Origin: Dehalococcoidia bacterium
GTDB lineage: Bacteria > Chloroflexota > Dehalococcoidia > GIF9 > UBA5629
Assembly (NCBI GenBank): GCA_003142375.1
Contig: PLME01000005.1
Span: 114,582 to 178,581 of the forward strand
Reading direction: 5' to 3'
DNA: 64,000 bases
A model generated the notes under the pieces. That model had not been told where the DNA came from and did not search any database. It saw nothing but the letters and a program-made list of their open reading frames with translations. Shown piece after piece: positions 29,244 through 44,634 of the stretch (position 1 is the stretch's first letter; each line of letters starts with the position of its first letter). Both the position numbers and the translations under genes were made by a program.

Positions 29244-30140
29244 TTGAGGGGCTATTTTTTGAATTCACGGTTCAATATCGATCTGGCTCTGGTCTTGATC
29301 TTATCATTTATTCTAATTTTAATAATTCTTTTTATCCCGATTGATGCAATCAGGATCATTCTAGGGCTGCCGTTCATACTGTTTTTTCCGGGCTATACAC
29401 TGGTCGCCGCATTATTTCCCGGAAAATCCGGCTTACAGAGCGTAGAAAGGCTGGCACTGAGCATCGGTTTAAGTCTGGCTATAATGCCGCTTATCGGCCT
29501 GATCCTTAACTGCACGCCATGGGGTATAAGGCTCCACCCCATACTAATTTCCCTTACCGTCTTTATCATGGCGATGTGCACAATTGCTTTTTTACGGCGA
29601 AACCGTTTATCCGATGATGATAAATACGACTTCGGCTCTATGCTAACCATCCGCAAAGCCGGAGCAAAAGAAGTTCCTGCCACAGACGGCATGCCCTCCC
29701 TTAAAAAGAAAAAATGGATGGATAGACTGCTTAATATTGTACTGGCACTGGCCGCCGTTGTCTGTATTTGCACCATTGTTTATGCGATCGTAACACCGAA
29801 AACAGGCGAGAAATTTTCCGAGTTCTATGTACTGGGAAACGAAGGCAAGGCGGAGAATTATCCGCGTGATGTTAAACTGGGGTCTCCAATATTGCTTACT
29901 ATAGGTATTGTGAACCATGAACAGGCGGAAACTGTGTATACCGGTAAAGTGACTATTGACGGGGTCAATAATATTGCCTTACCCACGATAACGCTGGCTC
30001 CAGAGCAAAACCAGGAGCAGGTTATTTCGTTCACCCCCACCAAAGTGGGCCAGAGTCAGAAAGTGGAGTTTTTACTATTTAAGAATGCGGAGACAGAACC
30101 GTATTTAACGCTTCATATCTGGGTGAATGTGAGAAAGTAG
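29244..30140 (+). CDS. DUF1616-like polytopic membrane protein (paralog of 24416..25258)
   Basis: TTG start. N-terminus MRGYFLNSRF parallels MRFYNRVIL of the paralog. Shared FFPGY, GL.LNFTPWGI and EFY.L..EG.AENYP blocks. Confidence 0.5.
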   Translation: MRGYFLNSRFNIDLALVLILSFILILIILFIPIDAIRIILGLPFILFFPGYTLVAALFPGKSGLQSVERLALSIGLSLAIMPLIGLILNCTPWGIRLHPILISLTVFIMAMCTIAFLRRNRLSDDDKYDFGSMLTIRKAGAKEVPATDGMPSLKKKKWMDRLLNIVLALAAVVCICTIVYAIVTPKTGEKFSEFYVLGNEGKAENYPRDVKLGSPILLTIGIVNHEQAETVYTGKVTIDGVNNIALPTITLAPEQNQEQVISFTPTKVGQSQKVEFLLFKNAETEPYLTLHIWVNVRK

Positions 30141-31509: not shown

Positions 31510-31604
31510 AAGTAATGGTCTTTATCCCAATCTTGATAAATGGACCAATAATCCTCATATCACCTACTAAAAGCCTCCCCTTTTCTTACCAACCGTAGTG
31601 CTAG

Positions 31605-31694
31605 TTTTGCAGATCATCTTATCGTATTGGGCCGCGCGGTGGCCGCTTTTCCCGGGATGACGTGCTCATCTTCCTCAGCGATACTCTAAAATAG
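31605..31694 (+). pseudogene. 3' remnant of an excisionase-family HTH gene (paralogous to 43117..43326)
   Basis: Hand translation gives ...SYRIGPRGGRFSRDDVLIFLSDTLK*. The intact copy reads SYRIGPRGDRRFSKDDVLIFLSHTQ. There is an in-frame stop upstream and no start. Confidence 0.55.
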
Positions 31695-31736
31695 CCCGAA
31701 GTCAAAATTTGATCTATACGCCTTGTTAATACAAAA

Positions 31737-31770
31737 CTCCGCCAGGGCTTGGCAGGCTTCGCTGGCGGAG
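31737..31770. repeat. inverted repeat CTCCGCCAG-N16-CTGGCGGAG, copy 1 (leader element)
   Basis: Perfect 9-bp arms with a 16-nt loop GGCTTGGCAGGCTTCG, followed by GGGAGAAAACCCGTG. Near-identical to copies at 32007..32040 and 43351..43384. Confidence 0.55.
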
Positions 31771-31857
31771 TCTGGCACAGGGAGAAAACCCGTGCTTGTC
31801 GGCTATTCTAACAAAGCTTCAGTGACAACTCAATCAATATCGTTCATATCTCATCAA

Positions 31858-31920
31858 TTCATAGTACTTTTGTACTAGTCAGCTAATAGTACTTTGTGAC
31901 CAGTAGTACTTTTAGACCAT
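31858..31920. promoter_or_regulatory. cluster of AGTACT-centred iterons upstream of the beta-helix gene
   Basis: TAGTACTTTTGTACTAG ... TAGTACTTTGTG ... TAGTACTTTTAG. Three TAGTACTTT units 22-25 bp apart, the first palindromic. No credible ORF here. Confidence 0.35.
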
Positions 31921-32006
31921 AGAAAAGGGACTAATGGGCTATTATCTTTAGCTTCAACGCAGCGTATATTGATTACAGTCCGATAAATACAGGGCGAATA
32001 ACGAAA

Positions 32007-32040
32007 CTCCGCCAGGGCTTGGCAGGCTTCGCTGACGGAG
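32007..32040. repeat. inverted repeat CTCCGCCAG-N16-CTGACGGAG, copy 2, immediately 5' of the 32062 start codon
   Basis: Same element with one arm mismatch. Followed by GGGGAGAAGAACC-ATG (RBS plus start of the beta-helix gene). Confidence 0.55.
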
Positions 32041-32061
32041 TTTAGCACGGGGAGAAGAACC

Positions 32062-33300
32062 ATGCTACGTTTACATGGAATTATCCGGCGTCAGACCGCT
32101 GCACGCAAACAGCTGCACGTTATTAATAAGTCCCTGCTATTCTGTTTTCTTTTAATGGCTTGCTTGAGTACTATTTGCAGTGTAGCATTGCCACCCGTCG
32201 CTCTTGCATCTAATATAGATGGCAAATTTTATTTGCCTGAAAATCTATTCTCAGATACCGCAACATATTTCATAGCAGCCTCAGATGCTACAGCAACAGA
32301 AAAGGCACAGGCTGATGTTGTATGTGATGGAAAGGCAGACCAGGTTGAAATTAATGCAGCTATTATAGCAGGACACAATCATATCGTACTATCAAGTGGT
32401 ACTTTTGCAATTGGTGCACAGATTGTTTTGGCAAGTAACATATGGCTTCAAGGGCAAGGTGCTGGAACTATTATAAAAATTGGTGGCGATTATTCTGGCA
32501 TAAAAGTCATAGGTTGTACATACTTTACTCTATCTGATTTTGAAGTAGATGGAGATAATAAAAACACGGGTCTTGGAAGTCATTCTATTTATATCCGTAC
32601 GGGATGTTCTCATTTCACAGTTAGAGATTTACGAGTAGTAAACTCCCATTCCTTTTCACTTATGTTTGACGATGATTGTAGTTATGGCGTAGTTGATAAT
32701 ATTTATTGTTTAAGTTCCAATGAAGCATATCACGATGGAGTACATCTTAATGGTTGTAGCAATATGACAGTAAGTAATATTTATGGTTCAACTGGTGATG
32801 ACTTATTGTGTATTGGGTCCAAAACAGTAGCCACCTCTCATATAACAGCAACAAATATTTCAGGAGTTTCTGGTATGGCGCATCTATGCAGAATATATAT
32901 TGCAGAGCATGCTTCTGCAGGGGCGGCTGTATCAGATATTACTGTTAGCAACATATCCGGCACTGCTAAGAGATTATTGATTATTAACAGCGACACCAAC
33001 GGAACTATCAGTAGAGTTTCTGTTAATAATATTAGTGGGGTTGGAACTGCTAATGGAATCCGTGCTGATACGACCGCTGGCGGGACTATTTCCGACATTA
33101 ATATTGATGGTTTTAGTGTTAGTGGCTCCAGTACCTATGGAGTATTTATTAATGGCGTAACCAGGGGGGCATTGACAAATGGCTCAATTCTAAATTGCTC
33201 TGACCATTCTCTACTTCTAAGAGCCAATACAGCCTTCAAATGCGATAACATCAATATTAAAACAGAGGTTGCAAGCCGGTCAGGTGTGGCGGTAGATTGA
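32062..33300 (+). CDS. secreted right-handed parallel beta-helix protein (pectate-lyase superfamily)
   Basis: Signal anchor. Repeated beta-helix rungs (IVLSSGTFAIGAQIVL, IYIRTGCSHFTVRDLRV, VSNIYGSTGDD, VSNISGTA..., VNNISGVG...) typical of the pectate_lyase_3 / tailspike-like fold. Confidence 0.6.
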   Translation: MLRLHGIIRRQTAARKQLHVINKSLLFCFLLMACLSTICSVALPPVALASNIDGKFYLPENLFSDTATYFIAASDATATEKAQADVVCDGKADQVEINAAIIAGHNHIVLSSGTFAIGAQIVLASNIWLQGQGAGTIIKIGGDYSGIKVIGCTYFTLSDFEVDGDNKNTGLGSHSIYIRTGCSHFTVRDLRVVNSHSFSLMFDDDCSYGVVDNIYCLSSNEAYHDGVHLNGCSNMTVSNIYGSTGDDLLCIGSKTVATSHITATNISGVSGMAHLCRIYIAEHASAGAAVSDITVSNISGTAKRLLIINSDTNGTISRVSVNNISGVGTANGIRADTTAGGTISDINIDGFSVSGSSTYGVFINGVTRGALTNGSILNCSDHSLLLRANTAFKCDNINIKTEVASRSGVAVD

Positions 33301-33331
33301 CCCCACCCCCGTAATTTAATCAATAATAACT

Positions 33332-35083
33332 TCATTTATTCTCTAAATAATACAATTTTTCATGATTGTTATCATATATATTGGCAAATGAAATTTGATT
33401 ATCAATATTTAATATTAGAGAACTATTTGGGATGTTGGACAACCCGCCCCATTTAATATATAACTTATATTCTGTATTCAATTGAGATAACGCAATATAG
33501 TTGCAAATAGCATAATCCATGTTTTCCGTTCTCAAATTATCAATATCTTTGGGTGATTGAGATTTGAATAATTCTTCTATCTGATTTCCCCACAATCCCA
33601 TTCTATTGCCAAAAGCAGTAATGCTTTCAGTCATCTGAGTATCGGCTAAATAACCAGTATTATTATTTGTTTTATCATTTATCCACATAGAAAAAGTTTT
33701 TAAAGAAATCGGTGTTTCTTCTGGAATTAATCCTTTGGTATATATTTGTGGTGCAAAAGCAGTTAGTGGTCCTAATATTAATGTGATAATACAAAACCCC
33801 ATTATGATTGTTTTACTATACTTAAACCGATAAGTATAGAAACTATGCATGATCATAAATGCAGCGGATATTGATAAGGGAAAAACTAAGTAATCAATGA
33901 TTCGAAAACCTTCTACTGAAATCCCACCAGGCCCACCAAGTGGAACAATAAACGCCACCCCAATCAATAAAAAAATAAAAAATGACCAGATTGTCGTAAT
34001 TTGCATTAGTCTATTGTCTTCCATTTTGTAAAATTTATGCTTTACACTTTTTAAAATTGAATACATAATGCCTGAGATTCCCAATAACGCAATAGAAAAA
34101 TATTGTATTAAACGTCCAATGGCTAAATAGGATGGGAAAAATGTTTCACTGGCATGAGAAGGCCAGGATAATTTAGAAATAAACCCATTTTCCATAACAT
34201 TCTTTAATTGAACAATAAAGGCCTTTATATTATGTGCAATAAATCCCGGAACAGTTATGTATATCCACCATGAAACCAGTGACACTGACCATAGAATTAT
34301 TGTTGTTACAGGGATTTTTGTCTTTGTTTTGTTTAGATAATCAAATAGGACAATAATTATAATCGTAAACAAAAATACTACCGAATCTAATTGATGAGAA
34401 ACAATTGATAGCACTATTGAAATGAATAGGATAATTGTCATAGAAATGCTGTTTGTATTTATTCTCTTAAATATAATAAATAAAGCCATAAAAAAGCCTA
34501 AACGAGATAATTCTTGTACTATTACATGTGTTCTATTTAGTATTGACACCACTATAAGTGCATAAAATAGTAAAGATAATAATGAAATATTACTTTTATT
34601 TGTAATTGTTAAGACAAATAAATATAGGAATAATGATACCATTATGCCAATAGTAACGGTCAGCAAATAATATTCTACAGGCATGTTGAAAGGCATAATA
34701 ATATATACGAACGCCAATAAAATATGAGCTCCCGGCCACGATGAAAACACCTGGTGAGGTATTAAAGGTAAATCCTTTGCGATATAACCATTTTCAATTA
34801 TATAATCTGCATATAAAACATGATGATAGTTAAATCCCCATGGTAAGTTAGTGAGCAATAATGGCAAAATCGAAGGAATGATGATTACTATTAGGCAGCT
34901 TATTAAGTTAGTGGATTTATTAGTATCATGAAAAATATTAAACACTAAAATGGAGAGTGCCGCACCATAAAAAATGAAAAAAATTAATGAAAATAGGGGA
35001 TTATAGTTAATTAATAAAAGTGCCGTAATAGCACATAAAATATTAATATAAAATATTTTGTAAAAATATTTAGGATTATTCAT
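33332..35083 (-). CDS. strongly AT-rich polytopic membrane protein, putative glycan polymerase / GT-C-like
   Basis: 583 aa with about 14 TM helices and a soluble ~150-aa C-terminus. No recognisable motifs. Its composition stands out from the surrounding genes. Confidence 0.4.
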   Translation of the reverse strand: MNNPKYFYKIFYINILCAITALLLINYNPLFSLIFFIFYGAALSILVFNIFHDTNKSTNLISCLIVIIIPSILPLLLTNLPWGFNYHHVLYADYIIENGYIAKDLPLIPHQVFSSWPGAHILLAFVYIIMPFNMPVEYYLLTVTIGIMVSLFLYLFVLTITNKSNISLLSLLFYALIVVSILNRTHVIVQELSRLGFFMALFIIFKRINTNSISMTIILFISIVLSIVSHQLDSVVFLFTIIIIVLFDYLNKTKTKIPVTTIILWSVSLVSWWIYITVPGFIAHNIKAFIVQLKNVMENGFISKLSWPSHASETFFPSYLAIGRLIQYFSIALLGISGIMYSILKSVKHKFYKMEDNRLMQITTIWSFFIFLLIGVAFIVPLGGPGGISVEGFRIIDYLVFPLSISAAFMIMHSFYTYRFKYSKTIIMGFCIITLILGPLTAFAPQIYTKGLIPEETPISLKTFSMWINDKTNNNTGYLADTQMTESITAFGNRMGLWGNQIEELFKSQSPKDIDNLRTENMDYAICNYIALSQLNTEYKLYIKWGGLSNIPNSSLILNIDNQISFANIYDNNHEKLYYLENK

Positions 35084-35213
35084 GTACTATACTATGACCT
35101 GGTTATCATTATGAGGAACATAGGCAAAAACCAAAGTTTCATATCAGCTATCTTACCACCATCTCGTAAATATTCTCTACCTTTTTTGCCATGTTTTCCC
35201 GTGAATACTTGAG

Positions 35214-36740
35214 CTAATGTTCTGGATTAAAAATGCTCTTCCCATCGAATAGAAAGTCGCCGTGTACGTTAAGCAGGTCAAGTACGGTTGGGGCGATGTC
35301 CATTAATGTTATATTAAATTGGGAGAAATTTTCTGAACCCGGATAGGATATTAGAAATACCGGGGAATCTGAGCGGTGCGATCCCGGATGTATTTCATGC
35401 GTTCCGGATTTTCCCATGATTGGGCAGTGTATGGACCATCCTATTCCATATCCCTCCTGCAACTCAAAAACAATGTCAGGGTACCGATTAATGAACTCGC
35501 CCTGATACAGCTCTTCGCGTCGGCAGATCCACTTCATTATATTGATACCAGAAGTTGGCTCCCTAATTATGGAAAGCCTGTCAATAATTGCGCTCCGCAG
35601 CTCTTCGTAGCTATTCCTCTTTTTGGCATCACCGCTTATTTCAATGCCCCCGTACGAGTAAGCTTTTATGCCGGAAAGGTCGGAAACACAGGCTATAGTC
35701 TTATCCCAGTCAACCCCTGATGGTGCGGCATAGATTTTCCTGGCCCAGGGGAATAACCTAAGTAATCGGGCAGCTATTACCTCAACACCATGCACAGAGA
35801 TAAGACGGTCAGCCGCTCTTTTGGCCATCTCAGTGAATCTACTTAAATTGCTCTGATGGTTTTGTCCGCCTTTAGATACCAGATATCCTTCTTTCCTAAG
35901 GATCTCATTAATGTTGACAAGGTTGACAGGGCGCATACCGTGTCCGTGGTCACTGAAAATAATTACCGTTGATCCAGAATTAACGGCGGACAGAAGCTCT
36001 CCTATCTTTTTGTCATAAAGGACGTAAAAGTCTTTTATCACATCTTTAAAAGGAGTACCTGCCACATGTGTGGGATCTTTATCATCATGGTGGGACCAGA
36101 AGCAGTGTTGAATAGAATCAAGAACCGAGGAGTACATAAAGAACAGGTCCCAGTCATCCTTTCTCAGCATCTCAATCCCAAATGAGAATTCGTTAGAGAG
36201 AAGATTCTTGCATTTAGCAATAATCTTATATAGTGCGGATGCTTTTAGCGATGAAATCTCTTGGATCATGTTCAATCCGCTTAAGTCCTTATCTTTGCCA
36301 ATTTGCGATGGGTATGCCGCCGGTGCACAATTTGCGCCGAGGTGGCGCATGGATCTGGATACCATCACTCCGTTGACAGGCCAGGGGGGGTAGACTGCCA
36401 GAGGAAAAAGTACACATACTTTCTTTTGATGCTGGCTGAGGTAATCCCAGAAACAAGTGCCCTGGAGTCTTCCCCGAATGGAATTTTCCGAATCATCAAG
36501 GGCTGTGACAAAGCTCTTATTATCCAGCGGACTTCTAAAATATACAATGCCTGTAGACGCAGGGCTTTTTCCTGTATAAATGGATGCCCATGCCACGGGT
36601 GAATCAGGTGGGAAAACTGATTGCATGTGTATTTTAGGTGCATTTTTCATAAGTTCTCTTAGATTCGGGAGTTCGCTTTCGAACTTTGACAGAAGGATGG
36701 AATCAAGGGCGTCAATGCCAATCATTACGACTTTGTTCAC
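35214..36740 (-). CDS. alkaline-phosphatase-superfamily protein (type I phosphodiesterase / nucleotide pyrophosphatase-like)
   Basis: N-terminus VVMIGIDALD (metal-binding Asp pair) and later HG.. / DHGHGM segments fit the AlkP-core fold. GTG start abuts the upstream stop. Confidence 0.5.
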   Translation of the reverse strand: MNKVVMIGIDALDSILLSKFESELPNLRELMKNAPKIHMQSVFPPDSPVAWASIYTGKSPASTGIVYFRSPLDNKSFVTALDDSENSIRGRLQGTCFWDYLSQHQKKVCVLFPLAVYPPWPVNGVMVSRSMRHLGANCAPAAYPSQIGKDKDLSGLNMIQEISSLKASALYKIIAKCKNLLSNEFSFGIEMLRKDDWDLFFMYSSVLDSIQHCFWSHHDDKDPTHVAGTPFKDVIKDFYVLYDKKIGELLSAVNSGSTVIIFSDHGHGMRPVNLVNINEILRKEGYLVSKGGQNHQSNLSRFTEMAKRAADRLISVHGVEVIAARLLRLFPWARKIYAAPSGVDWDKTIACVSDLSGIKAYSYGGIEISGDAKKRNSYEELRSAIIDRLSIIREPTSGINIMKWICRREELYQGEFINRYPDIVFELQEGYGIGWSIHCPIMGKSGTHEIHPGSHRSDSPVFLISYPGSENFSQFNITLMDIAPTVLDLLNVHGDFLFDGKSIFNPEH

Positions 36741-37418
36741 TTATGAAATCTCCCTTACGGCGCTCCAAATAGTTGACTGCAAGGCAGGCAGCGTATTGGT
36801 ACCGTCAATTATGGTAAAACCGTATTGCTTTGCCAAACTTAGATATAACTCTCTCCGTTCGCTTAGGTGAGTTATAGAAGGTATGTCGTCCTTGCGTTTT
36901 ATAGCCACCTCCTCCGGTGCATCTATAAGTAACACCAAAGATGGTTTAGGGAGCAACCGCTCAAAAGCCCTGAGCATGTAGCTCATTTTTCTCTCTGTGT
37001 AGGAAAGAACAACCGCCAAATCAATAAGTACATCGTAAACGTAACGGTCACTCACGACGCTCGCTCCCCGCATCATTGGGATGCGAACATTCAACAGAAG
37101 TTGGATAGCATAATCGAGACAAAAAATAGATTCGTACACGGTTCTCATTAATGGATTACGCAGCACCTTTCTTAGCGTCGTGGAATAACGCATGTAGGTT
37201 CCCGGCGTTGGCTCATGACGGGGGATGAATAATGCCTTCCCTACCCAGAAAAATGGCTTAAGTATCATTGGTTCAAGCCCGCTCCATACATACTTCGTCT
37301 TAATGCCATGCTCATTCATATTTTCAACCAGTTTTTTGGAAAGCGTCGATTTACCGGTTCCATCCATTCCAACAAGGCATACCAGAATTCCCTTCTGTCT
37401 GCTGTTTGTTACCATCAT
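36741..37418 (-). CDS. P-loop kinase-like protein (thymidylate-kinase-like fold)
   Basis: Walker A VCLVGMDGTGKST near the N-terminus. About 225 aa. Substrate unknown. Confidence 0.4.
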   Translation of the reverse strand: MMVTNSRQKGILVCLVGMDGTGKSTLSKKLVENMNEHGIKTKYVWSGLEPMILKPFFWVGKALFIPRHEPTPGTYMRYSTTLRKVLRNPLMRTVYESIFCLDYAIQLLLNVRIPMMRGASVVSDRYVYDVLIDLAVVLSYTERKMSYMLRAFERLLPKPSLVLLIDAPEEVAIKRKDDIPSITHLSERRELYLSLAKQYGFTIIDGTNTLPALQSTIWSAVREIS

Positions 37419-38404
37419 TTCCTTAATAATTCACTATATACATGGTTCAGCTCGACGGCGATGTTTTTCCATGAATACGGCAATACTTTTTCTCGAGTTT
37501 TAATCTGCGTTCCGGCTTTCACCTTCGCCAGCAGGCCGATGAAATCCTCTCCATTCTCGGCGTACCAGAGACCATTTCCTTCGGGGAATATTCGCGGAAG
37601 TGCCCCATATCGGGTGCACAGGACAGTCAAATTGCACGACATAGCTTCCATAACTGAAAGTGGCGTCTCAATGCTGCCCAGCTTGTCGATGGTGGGAAAA
37701 ACATAGCAGTCGGCCAGGGCATAAAGCTCCTCAATGTTTTCAAAGTATTTCCTCCAGACAAGACACCCGCCAGCAACCAGCTTCTGATGCACTTCGTTTT
37801 CCTCACCGCTTGTTACACCGCCGACTATTATGGTTTGGACATCAGGGTCTCGATTTAAGTCATTGAGTATCGTCACATTTCTATTCATTTTGATATGGCC
37901 AATACACAGGACAATGAACTTCTGCCCGGGTAGATCATATTTATTTCTTAATGCTTGCTTTTTATCACCCGTCACAGGGGTAAACTTTTCGATATCAACA
38001 CCGGGGGGCAGGAATTTGACCCGGCAGCCGTAATTCACGAACAGCCTCTCTGATTCATAAGATTGAGTCAACACCATGTCAGGCTTGAAAAGCGGTATTA
38101 GCCTCCTTGATAAACTGGAAAATATCGGTTGTGTAGTAGATGCTACAGTCCTGGCACCGGTGAAAAACCTGACCATCTTTAATAGGGCTAGGCTTTTGAT
38201 GGTTGGCCCGGGTATAACATGGATGATGTCAGGATGAAATCTTCTTATCCCTTGCCAGAAGTCCGATAGCGGTAAAACAGACGGGGAGATCTTCAGGTGC
38301 AGGACATCATGTTGTTCGGCCAATTGGCGACAGAGGTGAAAAGCGATGTTGCCCATCCCTTCGTCAAGGCGATCACTGTAGGGGCTCAGCAAACAAATCC
38401 TCAT
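37415..38404 (-). CDS. GT-B fold glycosyltransferase (GT4-like)
   Basis: N-terminal Rossmann half-domain and C-terminal GGV.SGEENE-like donor-binding region. Overlaps the neighbouring gene by 4 nt. Confidence 0.5.
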   Translation of the reverse strand: MRICLLSPYSDRLDEGMGNIAFHLCRQLAEQHDVLHLKISPSVLPLSDFWQGIRRFHPDIIHVIPGPTIKSLALLKMVRFFTGARTVASTTQPIFSSLSRRLIPLFKPDMVLTQSYESERLFVNYGCRVKFLPPGVDIEKFTPVTGDKKQALRNKYDLPGQKFIVLCIGHIKMNRNVTILNDLNRDPDVQTIIVGGVTSGEENEVHQKLVAGGCLVWRKYFENIEELYALADCYVFPTIDKLGSIETPLSVMEAMSCNLTVLCTRYGALPRIFPEGNGLWYAENGEDFIGLLAKVKAGTQIKTREKVLPYSWKNIAVELNHVYSELLRK

Positions 38405-38409
38405 ATCAG

Positions 38410-39594
38410 TTATCTCAGCGCCATCTCGTAAATCTTCTCAACTTTTTTTGCGATGTTTTCCCATGAATAATCCCTGATACTGGCCCTGGCATTCTCACCC
38501 ATTTCCTGTCTTAAAGCAGCATCAGATAGAAGTCGGTTTATGGTCTCTGCCAGGGAGTCTATATCCCCCAGTTTGGCTACCAGGCCATTGTATCCATCTT
38601 TTATGAAGGCCCGGAATGTTTCCAGGGAGCTGACTACGATGGGCAATCCTGCGGCGGCCGCTTCCAAGAGAACTATGCCGAACGACTCTGTCCTTCCGGT
38701 AGAGGGAAGGGCGAATATATCTGCAGCACCATAATAAGATGCCGTTGTATCGTAGGGTACCGCTCCCACGAGCTTTATTGCGTGGTTTACACGAAGGTCA
38801 TTGGCAAGGCGTTCTAAATCTCCCCGCAGCGGGCCATCGCCGACAAACACCAGTCTGGCATCGGGGTTTTTTTCAATAATCGTGGGCATGGCTTTTATGA
38901 GAAGGTCAGGGCTTTTATAGTTGATCAATGCGCCAACGAACAAGATTATTTTTTCGTCCTTGTGCAACGATAGTTTATTTCTACATTCTTCTTTTGAATA
39001 ATGCATCCTATATTCATCGGCGTTTATACCCGGGGGGATAGCGATGATCTTCTCCCGGTATTTGGGTAGAAAACGAGATATAGGGATATAGTGAACGGAG
39101 TTACAGGTGATAACCCTGGCCCTGGATAGAATCGTGGGCACAATGAACCTGTCCAATAGGCTTAGTCCTGCTTTGCGTATCAAATTTCCATAACTAGGAT
39201 TTGCGTCACCGTGATAGGTGACAACGAGGGGTTTTCTTTTCATCTGGGTATAGAATAGGCTGGCAAGCTCAGCGGGCGGCAGGGCGTAGTGCAGGTGAAC
39301 TATATCTACATCTTGCTGCAGTGATCTAGGGAACATGCCAAAGGAGAAGAACGCTTTATCTATCTTAAGATTTATCCCATAGCGATATACTTTGATGCCG
39401 TCCTCTTCTGAGAAATGGTTTTTGGAATCTACGGAAGTAGTAAAAACAACTATATCATGTCCCAGTTTTGCCATCTGGTGGGCCAGGTGATACGCCCATA
39501 CCTCCGCTCCCCCAACCGGATAACAGCGATATACTTCTGGATCCGTAAATGATTCCGGGTACGGGAAAGGAGTAATAAAATACCCTATTTTCAA
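38410..39594 (-). CDS. glycosyltransferase family 4
   Basis: E-x7-E motif (ESFGIVLLEAAAAGLPIV). GT4 architecture. TTG start overlapping the upstream TGA. Confidence 0.8.
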   Translation of the reverse strand: MKIGYFITPFPYPESFTDPEVYRCYPVGGAEVWAYHLAHQMAKLGHDIVVFTTSVDSKNHFSEEDGIKVYRYGINLKIDKAFFSFGMFPRSLQQDVDIVHLHYALPPAELASLFYTQMKRKPLVVTYHGDANPSYGNLIRKAGLSLLDRFIVPTILSRARVITCNSVHYIPISRFLPKYREKIIAIPPGINADEYRMHYSKEECRNKLSLHKDEKIILFVGALINYKSPDLLIKAMPTIIEKNPDARLVFVGDGPLRGDLERLANDLRVNHAIKLVGAVPYDTTASYYGAADIFALPSTGRTESFGIVLLEAAAAGLPIVVSSLETFRAFIKDGYNGLVAKLGDIDSLAETINRLLSDAALRQEMGENARASIRDYSWENIAKKVEKIYEMALR

Positions 39595-40709
39595 TGAAGG
39601 AGTTCCCCGTATAGGTGCATTACTTTCTGCGCAATCCGCTCCCAGCTATATTGTTCGGCATTCTTCCTAGCCGCCTGGCTCATCTTTTCACGCAAACTGC
39701 TATCAGTCAAAATGGTATTTATAGCATCAGCCAGCATGACTGAGTCCCTGGGCTTAAAACTAATCCCGCATTCATCAGTAACAAGTTCTCTGAGCCAGGG
39801 GAAATCTGAGAAGATTACAGGAGTACCGCAGGCCATCGCCTCTAGAGCAGAAATACCAAAATTCTCACCTCTCGTTATAGGCGGTAGAACATATGTATCG
39901 CTAATTTTATATAATTGTGGTAACTCTTCATGTGGTATTAAACCCAGGAACCTGATATTGGTTATATTTTGTTCCTCTATTATTCTTTTCAGATGCTGTT
40001 CTTCCTGACCTTTACCAGCGATCACCAGGGTACCGGCTTTGACATATTTCATGGCTCTGATTAGGTACTCTAAACCTTTGTATTTAACAAATCTGCCTGC
40101 GAAGAAGACAATGTTCTCCGCCGGCAACTGATATTTCTCTCTGATATGGCCTTCTTCTACTGATGGATTGAAACGTTCCAGGTCAACACCATTCGGTACC
40201 ACTTCAATCTTACTCAGGTAATGTTTCAGCACCGGGGAGGTTTCCGCATACGATATGCTGGTTGCCGTTACTATGCTTGCACTGGATACCGCAAAGGGGT
40301 TTATAAAACGATTATAGACGGCAGCAAATAAACTCCCTATAGCAGACTCAGCGTTGCCATCAAACTGGTAATCAAAGACGCATGGTTTATTGTTGCGCGC
40401 GGCGTACATTATAGCTATATCAGATACTCCGGGAAGAGTTCCATGGGCATGAACGATGTCGGGATTCACAGATGCAAGACATCGATAATATGCCGGCATG
40501 ATAGGTACCTTGAAAATTGTAAAAAGGGAACGGGTTCTTATCTCCTCAATCCCATCGCTTATATCCCTGCAGGGACTGCCCGGTGGTCTGGATACAACTA
40601 CACTAACTTTATGCCCCGCACGTATAGATTCATTGGCAAGATACCTTATATAACGTTCGATGCCACCTTCAGTAAGGGAGAAATCCTTGAAACAATGGCA
40701 GATGTGCAT
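39591..40709 (-). CDS. glycosyltransferase family 4
   Basis: ENFGISALEAMACGTPVI (E-x7-E), with KYKG and GKG motifs. Confidence 0.8.
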   Translation of the reverse strand: MHICHCFKDFSLTEGGIERYIRYLANESIRAGHKVSVVVSRPPGSPCRDISDGIEEIRTRSLFTIFKVPIMPAYYRCLASVNPDIVHAHGTLPGVSDIAIMYAARNNKPCVFDYQFDGNAESAIGSLFAAVYNRFINPFAVSSASIVTATSISYAETSPVLKHYLSKIEVVPNGVDLERFNPSVEEGHIREKYQLPAENIVFFAGRFVKYKGLEYLIRAMKYVKAGTLVIAGKGQEEQHLKRIIEEQNITNIRFLGLIPHEELPQLYKISDTYVLPPITRGENFGISALEAMACGTPVIFSDFPWLRELVTDECGISFKPRDSVMLADAINTILTDSSLREKMSQAARKNAEQYSWERIAQKVMHLYGELLH

Positions 40710-40764
40710 TAGTTTTTCCCCTAGTCTAGGTTAATACTTGATGGCTCTGAAATTGACGATATAT

Positions 40765-41550
40765 TCAAGCCTTCACATTTCTGGCACTTAGTGCTGATAA
40801 ACTCTTGATTAAAAAGTCAACCATTAAAAATGGTATTCCCAGCGTGCAGTAAAAAAGCAAAGGCCTATATTTTCTTGTTGCATTCATGATGACCTGTAGA
40901 AATTTATATCCATCTTTTATACTGCTTAATTTGCTATTACCCGCGCGCCTGGCATAGTCAATCGGGATTTCGGCATAAGTGTACCCTACGAAAAGTGCGA
41001 TAACGCTCATTGCCGGCGTGAAATTCAAGCCATTTGGCAAGCCATTCAACCATGGCACCAGTGCTATATTGAAGATCCTCAATCCACTGGCGCTGTCAGT
41101 TATTTTTTTCCGTGTATATAACGATATGAGCAGGACAAATAATTTATTTCCGACTCGGCGTATGATTGGCATGCCAACATTGTGTCCTAAAAAGCGTGAA
41201 CCAACAACGATGTCATAATTACCTGTTTTACACAAATTATAGAGCTCTGGGATTTTCTCAGGTGGATAAGTTCCATCAGCATCGAGGAACGCAATATATT
41301 TAATCATGCGTTCAGGAGTTGCTTCTTGGGAGAACCCTACTTTAAGGGCACCTGCATAATTTAGATTAATTGGATTGTCAATTACCCGAGCACCACAATC
41401 TCTGGCTATCTGTGCTGTTTTATCTATGCTGCAGTCATTGACAATTATCAGTTCAGCTTCCGGGCAAACCTTATGAACGCGATCGATGACATCTTTTATT
41501 CCCGCCTCTTCATTATATGCGGGTATTACAATCCTGAGATCCTGCATCAC
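40765..41550 (-). CDS. GT2 family glycosyltransferase (polyprenyl-phosphate sugar synthase, Dpm1/ArnC-like)
   Basis: IVIPAYNEE ... VNDCSIDKT ... FLDADGT (DxD). 261 aa with a C-terminal TM helix pair, as in DPM1/ArnC-type enzymes. Confidence 0.7.
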   Translation of the reverse strand: MMQDLRIVIPAYNEEAGIKDVIDRVHKVCPEAELIIVNDCSIDKTAQIARDCGARVIDNPINLNYAGALKVGFSQEATPERMIKYIAFLDADGTYPPEKIPELYNLCKTGNYDIVVGSRFLGHNVGMPIIRRVGNKLFVLLISLYTRKKITDSASGLRIFNIALVPWLNGLPNGLNFTPAMSVIALFVGYTYAEIPIDYARRAGNSKLSSIKDGYKFLQVIMNATRKYRPLLFYCTLGIPFLMVDFLIKSLSALSARNVKA

Positions 41551-41576
41551 GCATTATACAAATATATTAGGTTGTA

Positions 41577-42836
41577 TTACCAGCAGATGCCTTCGTATAT
41601 TCGGGCTTCTCTGGCTTTAAGGACCCGCCTGCCATCTATGACTATCTTGCCCCGGTAATCCAGGTTATTGAACTCATCCCACTCAGTTAATATCATTACG
41701 GCATCAGCGTTTAGTACTTCATCAGCCGTGGCATATTTTACTGAGTCGGGGAATACTTTCCGAAAATTGGGCATTGCCTGGGGGTCATACGCGGTAACTT
41801 TGGCTCCCTCTTCTTGCAGGGCATGTATTATTTCGATGGCCTTCGATTTCCTGATGTCATCGGTATCCGCTTTAAAGGCTAATCCCAGAATGCCAATAGT
41901 CGCGCCTTTCAATACCGGTATATGCTTTTTAAGTAGGGTCAACATTCTCACAGGTTGATTAATGTTAAGCCTCTGGACCTCTTCCAGGATTCCTGCACGG
42001 TAATTAGCATCCTTTGCACTTGATATTAATGCCGATAAATCCTTGGGCAGGCAGAATCCACCGAAGCCTATACCGGCATTCAGGTAGTCTTTACCAATGC
42101 GGGCGTCAAGGCCCATCCCTTTAGCCACCTCATAAACATCCATCCCCATGCTCTTGCATATATTGCCTATTTCATTAATAAAGGAAACCCGGGTTGCCAG
42201 GTAGGCGTTGGATGCCTGCTTTATCATCTCAGCGGTGCTGAAGTCAGTCCTCATAATAGGAGCGTTGTAATCTTTATAGACATCGGCGAGCATGTCGCCC
42301 CATTTATTTTCTTTCTCGCCGATGACAATCCGGCTGGGTTTCATAAAATCCTCGACCGCAGTTCCTTCCCGTAAAAACTCCGGGTTTACACATATCCCCA
42401 CGTGTTCATTATGGTTTAAAACCGGTACGATAACTTTCTCAGTAGTGCCGGGGACAACGGTACTTCTTACCACCACAAGGTGATCTCCTATCTTTTCTTT
42501 CAGCACTGCTCTCAATTGCTTAGCAGGCTCTTCCAGGAAAAAGAGATCGATTGAGCCATCCGCTTTTGGCGGCGTACCGCCGCAGAGAAAGGTAATATCC
42601 GTGTCTAAAGCCTGCCTGTGGTCCGCTGTAGCAATTAAGTTAACCTCTTTTAATGCACAGCTCAGCCCCTCTTCAAAGATGGGGCAGGTACCTTCGTTTA
42701 TTTTCCGTACTTTCTCCGGATCGATATCGATCCCTATAACTTTGTGGCCTTTCAGCGCAAAGCCAACTGCAGTGGTTAGGCCCACAACACCCAATCCGAT
42801 TACGCTGATTGTCTTTTTGCCATTAGTCCTGGTCAT
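41577..42836 (-). CDS. nucleotide-sugar dehydrogenase (UDP-glucose 6-dehydrogenase family)
   Basis: N-terminal NAD fold ISVIGLGVVGLTTAVGFA. Catalytic-Cys motif GFGGFCLPKD. 419 aa. Confidence 0.8.
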   Translation of the reverse strand: MTRTNGKKTISVIGLGVVGLTTAVGFALKGHKVIGIDIDPEKVRKINEGTCPIFEEGLSCALKEVNLIATADHRQALDTDITFLCGGTPPKADGSIDLFFLEEPAKQLRAVLKEKIGDHLVVVRSTVVPGTTEKVIVPVLNHNEHVGICVNPEFLREGTAVEDFMKPSRIVIGEKENKWGDMLADVYKDYNAPIMRTDFSTAEMIKQASNAYLATRVSFINEIGNICKSMGMDVYEVAKGMGLDARIGKDYLNAGIGFGGFCLPKDLSALISSAKDANYRAGILEEVQRLNINQPVRMLTLLKKHIPVLKGATIGILGLAFKADTDDIRKSKAIEIIHALQEEGAKVTAYDPQAMPNFRKVFPDSVKYATADEVLNADAVMILTEWDEFNNLDYRGKIVIDGRRVLKAREARIYEGICW

Positions 42837-43116
42837 CTGTTACCCCCAATGATTTTTAAGTGATATATATCTGTGTACTATTTATAAGCCCGACGCATTC
42901 AGAATCTAAGGCTTTTAATACTACATGCCCCTGCCTGCCCTGTCAACTGCATTTTCATAACTAAACATCACTTTTCAAACAAGTAACATAGGACTAATTG
43001 GCTATTCAATCAGTACTATTGGGTGATTCACATTGTAGCTAGAGTGATATAAAGTAATCATATAGCATTATTAAGTGCAATTTGATGATTTAAAGGATGA
43101 TTAAAGAGGTAACAAG

Positions 43117-43326
43117 ATGAAAAATAATGGGAATACTAAATTAATGTTTACAACACGTGAACTGGCCAAATTCCTGAATGTCCACATTAATACCGTAAGG
43201 AGATGGAGCGATCAGGGGATAATAAAGTCTTACCGTATTGGGCCGCGCGGTGACCGACGCTTTTCCAAGGATGACGTGCTTATCTTCCTTAGCCATACTC
43301 AAGACCAATCCGGAGTCAAAGTTTGA
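43117..43326 (+). CDS. excisionase-family (MerR-like) HTH DNA-binding protein
   Basis: LMFTTRELAKFLNVHINTVRRWSDQGIIKSYRIGPRGDRRFSKDDV matches the 'HTH, excisionase family' consensus. AAAGAGG RBS. Confidence 0.7.
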   Translation: MKNNGNTKLMFTTRELAKFLNVHINTVRRWSDQGIIKSYRIGPRGDRRFSKDDVLIFLSHTQDQSGVKV

Positions 43327-43350
43327 TCTATAAGTCTCGATAATATAAAA

Positions 43351-43384
43351 CTCCGCCATGGCTTGGCAGGCTTCGCTGGCGGAG
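43351..43384. repeat. inverted repeat CTCCGCCAT-N16-CTGGCGGAG, copy 3, directly 3' of the excisionase-family gene
   Basis: About 125 bp (43330..43470) align with 31715..31850, including the loop, GGGAGAAAACCCGTG and ATTCTAACAAAGCTTCA. Confidence 0.55.
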
Positions 43385-43518
43385 TCTGGCACAGGGAGAA
43401 AACCCGTGCTTGCCGTCTTATTCTAACAAAGCTTCATTGCCAACTCAATCAATATCAATCAGATTTACTACTGAACGAGGGATTGAGCGAGATATGCACA
43501 ATGGCATTTTACTTTGGG

Positions 43519-44634
43519 CTATTTAATGAGACGTTTCCCCATTAATTCTTGTTGTGCCTCCTGGGTTTTATCCATGGCTGGCTTGTCTTGTCCCCATTCA
43601 ATGAGTTCCCGCATGCCGTCTTCTAATTGAACTCTGGGAGCAAATCCCAGCCTCTGTTTTATTTTCGTGATATCCGCATAACAATGCCTAATGTCGCCAG
43701 TCCGGTATTTGCCAACTACAACCGGCTTAATATTCTTATTGCAGAGCTTTATCAGAACTTCGGCGATTCGGCTGACTGAAACACTCCGGCCGGCAGCAAC
43801 ATTGAAGGTTTCGTAATCAGCCTCTTTCTTGTTCAGGGCCAGTAGATTTGCCTGCACAATATCATGTACCGAAGTGAAATCCCTGAGTTGCCGGCCGTCC
43901 TCATATAGTAACGGTGGCTTATTATTTTTGATAAGTGACAGGAAAATGGCCGCTACTCCCGTATAAGGATTGGACATAGATTGCCGAGTCCCGTAGGTGC
44001 AAAAGAATCGCAGGGCAACTGTAGGAATCTTATAGGTTTTGCCAATAGTCAGGCACATTTCCTCAACATCGCGTTTACCTATTGCGTAAATGCTGGTAGG
44101 TGATAATGGCCTGCTTTCAGCCGTTGGAATGGGTTCAACTTTTTTTCCGCAATCAGGGCACTTCATTTCCCAATCCCTGGCTAGAAGTTGTTTCTCACTC
44201 CTCGGCTCCGGGTACACTACTCCACATGCAGCACAGCTATATGAGCCTTCACCATAGATTGTATTGGAGGATGCGACCACAAGCTTTTCTACATCATATT
44301 TGCCGCTTGCCAAAACTTCCAGGAGTTTAGCAGTGGCGAAGGTGTTGACATCAGTGTACTTTTCTATCTGGTACATCGATTGTGCGACACCCACCATGGC
44401 AGCAAAGTGAAAAATGACATCGATATTTTTAAGCGCCTTTTTCAGCGCTGGCTTACTCCTCACATCCGCGTTAATGAACTCGGCATCTTTATTGAGATAG
44501 TCAGGCACTTTATCATGCACTTGAGGCTCCAGGTTGTCGATAATCCTGACTTTATGGCCCTCATTTATTAAAGCATCAACCAGATGGCTGCCTATAAAAC
44601 CGGCTCCCCCGGTAACTAAAATCCGTTTTGGCAT
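43519..44634 (-). CDS. NAD-dependent NDP-sugar epimerase/dehydratase (extended SDR) with inserted Cys4 zinc ribbon
   Basis: TGGAGFIGSH Rossmann motif and YAIGK (YxxxK). About 45-aa insertion CAACGVVYPEP...CPDCGKK. Confidence 0.75.
   Translation of the reverse strand: MPKRILVTGGAGFIGSHLVDALINEGHKVRIIDNLEPQVHDKVPDYLNKDAEFINADVRSKPALKKALKNIDVIFHFAAMVGVAQSMYQIEKYTDVNTFATAKLLEVLASGKYDVEKLVVASSNTIYGEGSYSCAACGVVYPEPRSEKQLLARDWEMKCPDCGKKVEPIPTAESRPLSPTSIYAIGKRDVEEMCLTIGKTYKIPTVALRFFCTYGTRQSMSNPYTGVAAIFLSLIKNNKPPLLYEDGRQLRDFTSVHDIVQANLLALNKKEADYETFNVAAGRSVSVSRIAEVLIKLCNKNIKPVVVGKYRTGDIRHCYADITKIKQRLGFAPRVQLEDGMRELIEWGQDKPAMDKTQEAQQELMGKRLIK

Follow-up and report, generated by a model that had tools for sequence, protein, structure and literature searches.

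The locus studied here raises the question of why a hairpin that precedes a ribosome-binding site and a start codon is repeated at two places where no conserved gene follows it. The window, that is, the whole stretch of 64,000 nucleotides that was analysed, is from a metagenome-assembled genome (MAG) of the Dehalococcoidia and contains three copies of this module. Copies A and B belong to a type called module 1, which contains no conserved gene, and copy C to module 2, which is the leader of a secreted-protein gene.

The three copies and their surroundings

A pattern search for the hairpin CTCCGCCAK-N16-CTGRCGGAG identified three copies in the window, all on the plus strand (31737-31770, 32007-32040, and 43351-43384), with 0 matches in 100 shuffles of the sequence and none expected by chance. 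The duplication described by an earlier note on this DNA is thus real, and the hairpins are located where it had placed them. Copies A (31617-31849) and B (43228-43464) are 85% identical overall. A pairwise alignment, which the note had proposed as a check, shows similarity over three segments: 31617-31645 with 43228-43256 (93%), 31644-31804 with 43258-43418 (87%), and 31804-31849 with 43419-43464 (89%). The homology of copy A to copy B begins at 31617, with a stub of the helix-turn-helix (HTH) gene that lacks the N-terminus and has a 3-nt deletion; its 26 codons agree with the roughly 25 that had been claimed. The segment AGTCAAAGTTTGA, previously listed as a separate part of the module, is merely the final codons of the HTH gene (G V K V stop). 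Copy C (32000-32066) is 88% identical to copy A and ends in the ATG at 32062, and its palindrome and ribosome-binding site are, as proposed, joined to this start codon as a true leader. In genomes and metagenomes, each module copy that was recovered has a homologous HTH gene next to it, a secreted-protein gene after it, or both, so the element is not a generic dispersed repeat. The block between copies A and B had been described as the lowest in GC, and the minimum (0.29-0.34) is indeed located inside it, at 33-35 kb, but the low-GC stretch overruns both repeats, from ~29 to ~45 kb. The features are listed in Table 1.

Table 1. Features of the module copies and their neighbours, with positions counted from the start of the window.
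Feature	Position	Strand	Basis or remark
Pseudogene stub, last 26 codons of HTH gene	31617-31694	+	Frame translation SYRIGPRGGRFSRDDVLIFLSDTLK, then stop
Predicted antisense sRNA gene A (module 1, copy A)	31729-31799	-	Terminator hairpin 31770-31737; terminator-like site in scan
Predicted sRNA A promoter, TTGAGT, 17 nt, TGtTAGAAT	31805-31833	-	Promoter scan, conservation
Regulatory region between divergent sRNA and mRNA promoters	31860-31946		Four (A)TAGTACTTT direct repeats and a GGGACTAATGGGCTATT box
Putative mRNA promoter, TTATCT, 17 nt, TATATT	31942-31970	+	Found by eye; under scan threshold
Module 2 (copy C), 5' leader of secreted-protein mRNA	31978-32066	+	Covariance-model match, 86 bits
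Target gene for a 412-aa secreted protein, N-terminus with a long leader or signal sequence	32062-33300	+	Weak GH28/beta-helix match
Intact gene for 69-aa HTH_17/MerR-like (BldC-like) DNA-binding protein	43117-43326	+	Pfam HTH_17 5.4e-11, MerR 2.6e-8
Predicted antisense sRNA gene B (module 1, copy B)	43343-43413	-	Ends predicted
Predicted sRNA B promoter, sigma-70-type TTGAGT, 17 nt, TGtTAGAAT	43420-43448	-	Promoter scan

The intact HTH protein scores 39.1 bits against the NCBIfam "excise" domain (TIGR01764) and 36.3 bits against HTH_BldC, which is under the cut-off of 77. Its nearest solved structures are those of BldC (6AMA and 6AMK, E 4.8e-5), and in size and domain content it resembles BldC, which has ~68 aa and a MerR-like winged HTH only. 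Its 548 homologues are from Dehalococcoidia wherever the source gives a name, and they are consistently the first or a neighbouring gene of clusters with UGDH, glycosyltransferases, and epimerases. The HTH_17/TIGR01764 "excise" domain is shared with excisionases and RDFs such as Xis, TorI, and AlpA. In contrast to these, the HTH gene in the window is not adjoined by an integrase, att sites, or prophage genes, and there were no Pfam matches to integrases or recombinases among the window ORFs scanned (~10.8 to 62.5 kb). A role as excisionase or RDF of a mobile element was rejected on these grounds, and "excisionase" is therefore a domain label rather than a function. A GGACTAATTGGCTATT box, related to GGGACTAATGGGCTATT, is located upstream of the HTH gene at ~42985-43005.

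In copy C, the module 2 leader contains the hairpins P0 (31978-31995), P1 (the hairpin of the pattern search), and P2, which encloses the SD GGGGAG and the ATG. The target protein matches Pfam Glyco_hydro_28 weakly (2.1e-5, 24.3 bits, cut-off 22.9), and its N-terminus is similar to those of other module 2 genes. Ten leader copies (winC, L006, L010, L094, L086, L087, L011, L102, L103, and L127) have a TATATT box and, 17 nt upstream of it, a -35 box that resembles TTCAYT. The 9-bp TAGTACTTT repeats are found upstream of every leader copy, with a spacing of 8, 17, or 25 bp; in the window, their GTAC is at 31864, 31872, 31889, and 31906. This array is likely to contain candidate binding sites for the BldC-like protein.

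The native order in the relatives is UGDH, then, divergent from it, the HTH gene, module 1, the TAGTACTTT direct repeats, the promoter, module 2, and the secreted-protein gene. This tandem layout is present, without a flanked cassette, in at least seven lineages. Close relatives carry different genes downstream of module 2, namely one for a beta-helix protein in the window, unrelated ORFs in L102, and genes for giant repeat proteins in L010 and L094, with the leader and the N-terminus common to them.

Signals on the minus strand of module 1

In the gene-less copies, the elements described as a "ribosome-binding site plus start codon" and a "tail" make better sense on the opposite strand, as the transcript and promoter of a small antisense RNA. 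Module 1 is not followed by a conserved ORF: its stub ORFs of 4-44 aa are in variable frames, the one in copy B is frameshifted and 6 aa long, and the nucleotide conservation continues across the stop codons. On the minus strand, TGnTAGAAT and a 17-nt spacer are present in all 11 module 1 lineages, preceded by TTGAGT or one of the -35 variants TTGAGG, TTGCGA, TTGAAT, and TTCCTA. The majority fraction over 10 lineages is 1.00 for the -10 box, 0.96 for the extended -10, and 0.93 for the -35 box, versus 0.74 for the spacer and 0.62 upstream, and the discriminator is variable. The combination TTGNNN-N14-TGNTAGAAT does not occur outside the module 1 promoters (L001-L116, both strands).

The transcribed portion of module 1 is nearly invariant across the 11 lineages, and the module is ~95% identical between genomes with HTH proteins that are only 77% identical. 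Read on the minus strand, P1 is a GC-rich hairpin of 9-10 bp with a large loop of 16 nt, which is followed by UUUU in most copies. The run reads UUUU(A/G)UAU, and the terminator scan lists the hairpin at copies A and B. L009, L087, L114, and L127 have short U tails of 3-4 U, with only 3 U in the first three and a broken tract (UUGUUGU) in the last. With what reads as a sigma-70 promoter and a terminator-like hairpin with a U run on the minus strand, module 1 has the appearance of a gene for an antisense RNA of ~70 nt. Both signals are consensus matches, and the sigma-70 rules are assumed to be valid in Dehalococcoidia.

The predicted small RNA (sRNA) B consists of a 5' hairpin that carries UUUUCUCCC (anti-SD), the terminator hairpin (43384-43351), and a U tail. 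Its predicted fold has two hairpins and UUUUAUAUU (-29.7 kcal/mol), and that of sRNA A two hairpins and UUUUGUAUU (-30.9 kcal/mol). Copies A and B match the leader at 32000-32066 to 88-90% over 66 nt, and the predicted duplexes have energies of -113 to -124 kcal/mol; for sRNA A, the value is -123.6 kcal/mol versus -46 +/- 4.6 for shuffles. The complementarity takes in the SD and the start codon of the target leader. Behind the start codon of copy C, the minus-strand -10 box is absent. A search with Rfam 15 over the window at the gathering threshold identified two tRNAs only, and nothing relevant was found at E<=10 in 31500-32200 on both strands.

Deeper-branching relatives have one element before a real gene. 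A minus-strand -10 hexamer (5/6; TATTAT, TACAAT, or TAGAAT) is present in six of the seven single-copy elements (L031, L013, L015, L008/L125, L129, and L126), with an adjacent TGn in four. The boxes sit in coding sequence, mostly without a good -35 box, at a constant offset of 13 nt from the first nucleotide of the start codon (codons 5-7), even though the encoded amino acids are not the same. L011 has no good -10 box and a shortened hairpin. No such hexamer is present at this offset in any of nine module 2 copies. Because the box recurs at an equal offset in deeper-branching elements, the single-copy class suggests an ancestral cis-antisense RNA, which may have become trans-acting after duplication of the leader stub.

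Structure, strand, and recombination

The earlier note preferred to explain the inverted repeat as a double-stranded DNA operator for the HTH protein, rather than as an RNA hairpin, and described the arm mismatches as not compensatory. Among the relatives, they are in part compensatory: 94% of the cells are paired, five pairs show double changes, and none of 500 shuffles attains such values. These conservation statistics overstate independence, because the sequences are closely related (effective sequence number of the covariance model ~3). One-sided stem changes give G-U pairs on the minus strand in module 1 and on the plus strand in module 2, where several stems also carry C-A mismatches in that orientation. 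P1b, the inner part, forms its G-U pairs on the plus strand only, and the 16-nt "spacer" of the hairpin is better conserved than the arms. The covariation of the stem, the G-U pairs, and the conserved "loop" argue for RNA over a DNA operator. A gene for a DNA-binding protein always adjoins the module, and the arms of 9-10 bp are nearly perfect; however, the half-site centres are ~25 bp apart, and BldC-type proteins bind direct repeats, not palindromes (PMC5859096), with TAGTACTTT repeats nearby, which makes the operator very unlikely. Of the suggested "shared operator or leader", the leader is retained for copy C. An RNA that acts on the plus strand is unlikely for other reasons. On this view, module 1 would either form the structured 3'UTR of the HTH mRNA or imitate the module 2 leader as a decoy and so titrate a P1/P2-binding factor (protein or ligand), and both copies would be riboswitch-like or protein-binding cis-regulatory RNAs. 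In 9 of 11 lineages, module 1 is located 20-50 nt past the HTH stop codon in the same orientation, which is consistent with this, as are the sequestration of the SD and start codon by P2 on the plus strand, the plus-strand P1b pairs, and a plus-strand promoter that is also retained in module 1 of L127. It leaves unexplained why the opposite strand has a -35 box, a spacer of exactly 17 nt but variable sequence, and an extended -10, as well as the A-run before P1 and the matching -10 box within real genes. Moreover, module 1 is divergent from the HTH gene in L114 and is therefore not merely a 3'UTR. Neither Rfam scan gave a match, and no conserved junction like a ligand pocket is apparent, the "loop" being mostly stem extension.

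Copies A and B are direct repeats of ~230 nt that flank 11.6 kb, and they record a rearrangement of the cluster, since in L102, which is 92% identical, the HTH gene, module 1, the repeats, module 2, and the gene are unsplit between UGDH and the epimerase. That part of the proposed cassette exchange or inversion holds. Inversion of the block is impossible because the repeats are direct, and recombination between the copies would therefore delete it. An invertible or shufflon-type phase-variation cassette was rejected on the same ground and because no recombinase was found among the ORFs scanned. It is quite unlikely that the repeats serve primarily as recombination substrates, that is, as homology anchors for the swap or deletion of surface-protein and glycan cassettes between strains. 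In favour of this view, the block between them could be looped out or exchanged, independent assemblies break at them, the variable genes behind module 2 follow a constant leader and N-terminus, a second junction repeat (35129-35207 and 38391-38469) is mosaic, and L102 is nearer to copy B (91%) than to copy A (86%). However, the ORFs scanned (~10.8 to 62.5 kb) include no recombinase gene, no alternative arrangement of the block was recovered, the tandem modules without a flanked cassette do not fit, and neither the strong purifying selection on the 70-nt core nor its promoter-like flanks would be explained, so recombination at the repeats is more likely a by-product than their function. Least probable is a type I toxin-antitoxin system, with a small toxin ORF on the plus strand and an antisense antitoxin on the minus strand. 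There is an SD with a short GTG ORF, the 5' end of which is overlapped by the predicted antisense RNA, but the frameshift in copy B and the unconserved length and frame of these ORFs argue against a toxin; they are not consistently hydrophobic, and most copies lack a conserved plus-strand promoter upstream.

A proposed regulatory unit and its known counterparts

Judged from sequence, the module probably consists of the promoter-proximal leader of a secreted-protein gene and a small antisense RNA that would cover this leader (probability about 0.6). In the ancestral form, a promoter on the opposite strand in codons 5-7 would fire back over the start codon, the SD, and P1, and P1 with the upstream A-run would act as a hairpin and U-tract terminator, giving a cis-antisense RNA of ~70-80 nt. 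A duplication in the window clade would then have copied a 5' stub of the gene (leader and ~20 codons). The module 1 stub would have lost its reading frame and retained, nearly unaltered, the promoter, transcript, and terminator of the antisense RNA, and the functional gene copy with module 2 would have lost the antisense promoter. Module 1 would thereby be a stand-alone sRNA gene, the product of which has ~88% complementarity to the module 2 leader along 66 nt, usually convergent with, and directly behind, the gene for the 69-aa BldC-like protein. We infer that the sRNA is produced and acts as a repressor, most likely by preventing ribosome binding, by triggering cleavage of the duplex, or both, and that the HTH protein likely binds the 9-bp TAGTACTTT array between the divergent sRNA and mRNA promoters. 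Being convergent, the transcript of the HTH gene might also act as a sponge for the sRNA or collide with it. The window would hold a single target, copy C, and two sRNA genes, at A and B. The rearrangement shifted the HTH stub, predicted sRNA gene, repeats, leader, and target gene 11.6 kb, beyond the glycosyltransferase operon, with the HTH gene and its predicted sRNA gene left in place.

The single-copy class (L031, L015, L126, and others) would be similar to IS10 RNA-OUT/RNA-IN and plasmid R1 CopA/CopT, which have a stem-loop antisense RNA of ~70 nt, a strong opposite-strand promoter within the 5' end of the target gene, and complementarity to the SD and start codon; the complementary hairpin loops could permit kissing-loop initiation. 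Unlike these systems, which act on transposase or replication genes, the one here would have its target on the chromosome, in a secreted-protein gene of a glycan cluster. The antisense gene of the window clade is, moreover, physically apart from its target by duplication, and neither sequence similarity nor an Rfam family connects the systems. IstR-1/tisB, OhsC/shoB, and OrzO/zorO are type I toxin-antitoxin pairs with antisense RNAs that are adjacent to their targets yet trans-encoded. There, as is proposed here, the sRNA gene adjoins the target divergently and the sRNA pairs with the 5' UTR via a duplicated stretch, whereas here the target is a secreted protein of 400 to >1200 aa rather than a small toxin, and the complementarity is far longer (~66 nt at ~88%). 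In the sap homologues of Campylobacter fetus, variable surface-protein genes have conserved 5' modules. Common to both are a shared leader and N-terminus before different mature domains and repeats able to mediate rearrangement, but the repeats here are direct, not inverted, and no invertible promoter segment or switching was found. Streptomyces BldC (6AMA, 6AMK) is a MerR-like winged HTH protein of ~68 aa without dimerisation or effector domains, which binds arrays of 9-bp direct repeats head-to-tail (PMC5859096). The TAGTACTTT arrays that flank the promoters here would be the candidate sites, although the HTH protein is below the NCBIfam cut-off, the repeat sequence differs from AATTNNNN(C), and the host belongs to the Chloroflexota, not the Actinomycetota.

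We tentatively suggest that this is an undescribed unit of Dehalococcoidia envelope loci, in which a BldC-like protein on a direct-repeat array would pick either the mRNA or the silencing antisense RNA, with the cis and the trans stages both preserved. If this is true, the choice concerns the mRNA of a secreted glycan-active or surface protein, and the family would show an evolutionary transition from a cis-antisense RNA in the first codons of a gene to a trans-acting sRNA gene.

Repeat copies and the glycan cluster

The inverted repeat reported in the earlier note, CTCCGCCAK-GGCTTGGCAGGCTTCG-CTGRCGGAG, is 34 nt long and occurs in three copies on the plus strand of the window, while none of 100 shuffles contained it (Table). 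The alignment of the two large repeat copies, A and B, consists of three ungapped blocks with an overall identity of 85%. As had been proposed, copy B contains an intact helix-turn-helix (HTH) gene that encodes a 69-aa HTH_17/MerR protein, of which copy A has kept only SYRIGPRGGRFSRDDVLIFLSDTLK*, and the third copy, C, continues into the start codon of a gene for a 412-aa product with a weak GH28 match. The segment AGTCAAAGTTTGA, which had been listed as a separate part, belongs to the HTH reading frame and forms its end. Copies A and B do flank a block, of 11.6 kb, but the suggested inversion is incompatible with their direct orientation, which means that the block could only be deleted. Nor do the repeats bound the lowest-GC block, as the low-GC stretch covers about 29-45 kb, past both copies, with a minimum at 33-35 kb. 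The repeat finding holds up, and it is of greater interest than a simple repeat would be.

Table. Positions of features in the window
Feature	Position	Strand	Remark
34-nt inverted repeat	31737, 32007, 43351	plus	three copies
Copy A vs. copy B, block 1	31617-31645 vs. 43228-43256		93% identity
Copy A vs. copy B, block 2	31644-31804 vs. 43258-43418		87% identity
Copy A vs. copy B, block 3	31804-31849 vs. 43419-43464		89% identity
HTH remnant, copy A	31617-31694
HTH gene, intact	43117-43326
Copy C	32000-32066		ATG at 32062
Predicted transcript, copy A	31799 to 31729	minus
Predicted transcript, copy B	43413 to 43343	minus
DUF1616 gene	24416-25258	minus
DUF1616 gene	29244-30140	plus
645-aa ORF	27201-29138
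583-aa gene	33332-35083		very low GC
Junction repeat	35129-35207, 38391-38469		79 nt, 84% identity
Unrelated sequence behind copy B	43467-43581
20-nt direct repeat CGCTGAGCTACAGGCGCATG	22021-22040, 52506-52525		exact
tRNA-Arg(TCG) gene	21963-22038	minus
tRNA-His gene	52558-52634
1277-aa ORF	47219-51052
Imperfect tandem/direct repeats	51067-51343		TTTTAAATAGGCGTCGTAGCTGATTTGT, units ~28 and 76 nt
c-di-GMP-type signalling genes	15482-20640, 22368-22982
Acetoacetate-decarboxylase-family paralogues	20929-21738, 53977-54801

The surrounding glycan cluster encodes two proteins of the mainly archaeal DUF1616 family, a flippase-like protein, GT2 and GT4 glycosyltransferases, a UDP-glucose dehydrogenase (UGDH) whose gene adjoins the HTH gene, two epimerases/dehydratases, a phosphodiesterase and a metallophosphatase. 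DUF2206 adjoins the same clusters in relatives. The 645-aa and 583-aa ORFs have no Pfam or NCBIfam match, and no recombinase was found among the ORFs scanned (~10.8-62.5 kb). An exact 20-nt repeat, with an estimated chance expectation of ~0.004, corresponds to the first 17 nt of the tRNA-Arg gene plus three upstream nucleotides, and its second copy lies ~30 nt from the tRNA-His gene. The pair encloses the whole 30.5-kb cluster in an att-like manner, which prompted us to consider 22.0-52.5 kb as an integrated island, but no integrase was found among the scanned ORFs. Two acetoacetate-decarboxylase-family paralogues are located just outside the two flanking tRNA genes, and a 38% GC stretch of imperfect repeats directly follows the 1277-aa ORF. 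The c-di-GMP-type genes at the cluster border code for two PAS proteins, PAS-GGDEF (1003 aa) and PAS-HD(HD_5) (708 aa), and for a stand-alone HD_5 protein; all three might act upstream in regulating the production of envelope polysaccharide.

Tandem layout in relatives and rearrangement in the window

The element was identified in further lineages by BLAST, by two covariance models (R1 and R2) and by a pattern scan of metagenomes. The pattern scan yielded 11 stretches, six of which fitted the 21 specified bases by chance. The proposed linkage to genes holds in that every copy is located beside an HTH homologue, before a gene for a secreted protein, or both. Searches against Rfam with gathering and permissive thresholds recovered only tRNAs and noise, and a full-text literature search found no description of the element.

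Seven lineages besides the window (L006, L010, L087, L094, L102, L103 and L127) share a tandem layout. The HTH gene, which is not contained in the L127 contig, is followed by a gene-less copy, module 1, that consists of the P1 hairpin (the inverted repeat), the P2 hairpin, which contains GGGAG and GTG, and a "tail". Behind it come (A)TAGTACTTT direct repeats, two to six in number, then a GGACTAA-N4-GCTATT box, TTCAYT-17-TATATT as a putative promoter, and a P0 hairpin. The layout ends with module 2, where P1 and P2 are followed by a real start codon, and a gene whose product has a long N-terminal leader and a signal sequence. This indicates that copies A and C of the window are a native tandem pair, while copy B, which faces the end of an epimerase gene, contains the HTH gene and module 1 only. 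In L006 (900-1540) and L103 (591-1151), the HTH gene and module 1 are separated by an inserted gene for signal peptidase I (Peptidase_S26), which fits a secretion-related regulon. L012 (JBEKIG010000019.1), binned as "Nitrososphaeria archaeon", has the same BLAST coordinates and identity as L010 (DBZK01000041.1, Dehalococcoidia UBA1162), and the two are identical in sequence at both element copies; the label probably means that the contig was misbinned into the archaeal MAG.

The closely related locus L102 is 92% identical to the window over UGDH, HTH and module 1, and 91% over the epimerase. Its order is unsplit: UGDH on one side and the epimerase on the other enclose the HTH gene, module 1, the repeats, module 2 and the gene. 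Behind copy B of the window, everything from the repeats to the gene end is missing and unrelated sequence follows, and an HTH stub, module 1, the repeats, module 2 and the beta-helix gene are found beyond the glycosyltransferase operon. Copy B is more similar to L102 (91%) than to copy A (85%), suggesting either that the duplication predates the split from L102 or that copy A comes from another lineage. The genes after module 2 vary among close relatives, which have the leader and N-terminus in common, and the block contains a further repeat, in which the junction between the end of a GT4 gene and the start of the next glycosyltransferase gene is copied into the intergenic region before the 583-aa gene. 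This suggests that recombination at an operon junction brought in the 583-aa gene. The variable genes and the junction repeat imply that the repeats record a mosaic evolution of the cluster, which they may also promote; no evidence of an active switch was found at the window repeats. Breaks in independent assemblies fall at the repeats or beside them, which explains why assemblies of these genomes are interrupted here.

A probable RNA hairpin and a predicted antisense RNA

The earlier note considered P1 more likely to be a DNA palindrome than an RNA hairpin, and the comparison of sequences does not support this. In 23 sequences, 94% of the cells in P1a, P1b and P2 are paired, and compensatory double changes, such as C-G to U-A and A-U to G-C, are seen at five pairs. 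Neither the observed paired fraction nor the covariation score was reached by any of 500 shuffles, and slid controls were 31-48% paired. The 16-nt "loop" is mostly a stem extension, GGCUU with AGGCU, which can form on the plus strand only with the help of two G-U pairs and in which changes from U-A to U-G are tolerated. One-sided changes give G-U pairs on the plus strand in module 2 and on the minus strand in module 1 (L006/L103, L127), and the centre of the hairpin is more conserved than its arms, the reverse of what an operator would show. The covariation statistics are moderate rather than decisive because the sequences are closely related, and thermodynamic stability alone provides no evidence, since the plus-strand minimum free energy of 43300-43470 is no better than that of shuffles (z = -0.65).

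A promoter scan of the minus strand in both window copies identified TTGAGT-17 nt-TAGAAT, with TG ahead, at the position of the previously described "tail", and a terminator-like hairpin with a T-run at P1. Each of the 11 module 1 lineages has this promoter-like signature with its 17-nt spacer and extended -10 box TGnTAGAAT; the -35 box reads TTGAGT in seven of them and TTGAGG, TTGCGA, TTGAAT or TTCCTA in the others. Conservation, measured as the majority fraction in 10 lineages, is 1.00 for the -10 hexamer, 0.96 for the extended -10, 0.93 for the -35 hexamer, 0.74 for the spacer and 0.62 further upstream, and the 6-9 nt from the -10 box to the conserved core are freely variable. The pattern TTGNNN-N14-TGNTAGAAT had no other occurrence on either strand of loci L001-L116. 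The predicted RNA would fold into a 5' hairpin showing UUUUCUCCC, a GC-rich hairpin that resembles a terminator, and a U tail (~-30 kcal/mol). Its sequence is almost invariant in 11 lineages, and over 66 nt it shows 88-90% complementarity to the leader of module 2, a stretch that takes in the Shine-Dalgarno sequence and the start codon.

Module 1 is ~95% identical between the window and L010, while their HTH proteins are only 77% identical, which suggests that module 1 is under strong constraint without coding for a protein. Its short ORFs encode 4-44 aa in different frames, and the conservation runs past their stop codons. A leader peptide and a type I toxin-antitoxin pair were both ruled out, since neither frame nor length is conserved. 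The reading of TTGGCAGGCTTCGCTGG as a sigma-54 promoter was ruled out by eye because the GG/GC spacing is wrong. A pseudoknot that pairs the P1 loop with the CUUGCC behind the start codon was dropped, as only module 1 could form it and module 2 does not conserve it. The best explanation, to which we assign a probability of roughly 60% on the basis of consistent sequence signatures in about a dozen lineages, is a pair of antisense RNA and leader under a BldC-like regulator, with a duplicated gene for the small RNA (sRNA). This would be a form of antisense control of translation initiation, a known kind of regulation, without an Rfam family or a description that we could find.

The HTH protein and a proposed origin of the pair

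The best solved relatives of the HTH protein are the BldC structures 6AMA and 6AMK (E 4.8e-5). NCBIfam assigns it an "excise" domain, and the match to BldC is below the threshold (36.3 vs. 77 bits). "Excisionase" is a mere domain name here, since no integrase or att context was found. BldC binds arrays of 9-bp direct repeats in a head-to-tail manner (PMC5859096). Repeats of TAGTACTTT, likewise 9 bp and in direct orientation, are spaced by 8, 17 or 25 bp and separate, in every lineage, the predicted sRNA promoter from the divergent putative mRNA promoter, and are candidate sites; a related box is located upstream of the HTH gene itself. We infer that the HTH protein may bind these repeats and set the balance between mRNA and antisense RNA.

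The 548 HTH homologues come from Dehalococcoidia according to those sources that give names, and the protein is present on contigs of the Stordalen Mire MAG GCA_003171355.1. A genome scan yielded 80 loci, and almost all of these carry the label Dehalococcoidia or that of other Chloroflexota. The DUF1616 genes had raised the possibility of an archaeal origin, which was rejected because both the HTH homologues and the source MAG are Dehalococcoidia. The closer homologues examined are also set in glycan clusters, and the more distant homologues P0021, P0062 and P0050 are not. No element was found near P0021, P0026, P0038, P0062 or P0050, which implies that it is restricted to a subclade rather than typical of the whole HTH family.

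In the deeper-branching loci L031/L038, L013, L015, L008/L125, L129 and L126, one element precedes a real gene of 402 to >1229 aa, and no second copy was found within the ~8-kb loci. Six of the seven single-copy lineages have a minus-strand 5/6 match to TATAAT with A2 and T6 kept (TATTAT, TACAAT, and TAGAAT in L126; TGn ahead in four), exactly 13 nt past the first base of the start codon, an offset identical to that in module 1. The residues encoded at this box vary (HNS, YCN, NCR/NCK, YSS), and no such box is present in any of nine module 2 copies. The single-copy P1 is preceded by AAAAAG, which places CUUUUU behind the hairpin on the minus strand, and MLAVYSNKAS, which is the "peptide" of the module 1 stub, is similar to MLNFYSSTRV and MLNIYCNTGV, the N-termini encoded by single-copy genes. 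The single-copy class supports the antisense model. The simplest history would start from a cis-antisense RNA spanning the translation start; the 5' stub would then have been duplicated, with the antisense gene kept in the stub, and the functional copy would have lost its internal antisense promoter.

In L127 (960-1205), module 1 is a fuller duplicate with a plus-strand promoter, a GGACTAA box, a P0-like region, a minus-strand TGTTAGAAT and a stub ORF of 12 aa. A private G-to-A change in the P1 stem is common to its two modules, and its module 1 may represent an intermediate stage of the duplication. The proteins behind the element in most relatives (L031, L013, L015, L008, L126 and others) belong to a very rare family with only 14 clusters among 5.8 billion proteins and no Pfam match. 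They contain a signal sequence, an invariant-rich motif, YLLDRVITWxDGTTEHVQI...DGFFxLDG, and a NELD-containing domain. The putative target in the window differs from this family by its beta-helix/GH28-like body, although its N-terminus is similar.

Dehalococcoidia are abundant and mostly uncultured inhabitants of sediments, peat and aquifers, and to our knowledge almost nothing is known about gene regulation and small RNAs in this class. Annotators should be aware that the "excisionase" label is misleading, as is the apparent ribosome-binding site and start codon in the gene-less copies. If the prediction is true, the class would gain a first candidate family of sRNAs, linked to loci for envelope glycans and secreted proteins and to a BldC-type regulator that is not from actinomycetes. 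The family would then also provide a clean natural case in which a trans-acting sRNA gene arose from a cis-antisense RNA via the duplicated 5' end of its target, with the cis and trans states both extant in related genomes.
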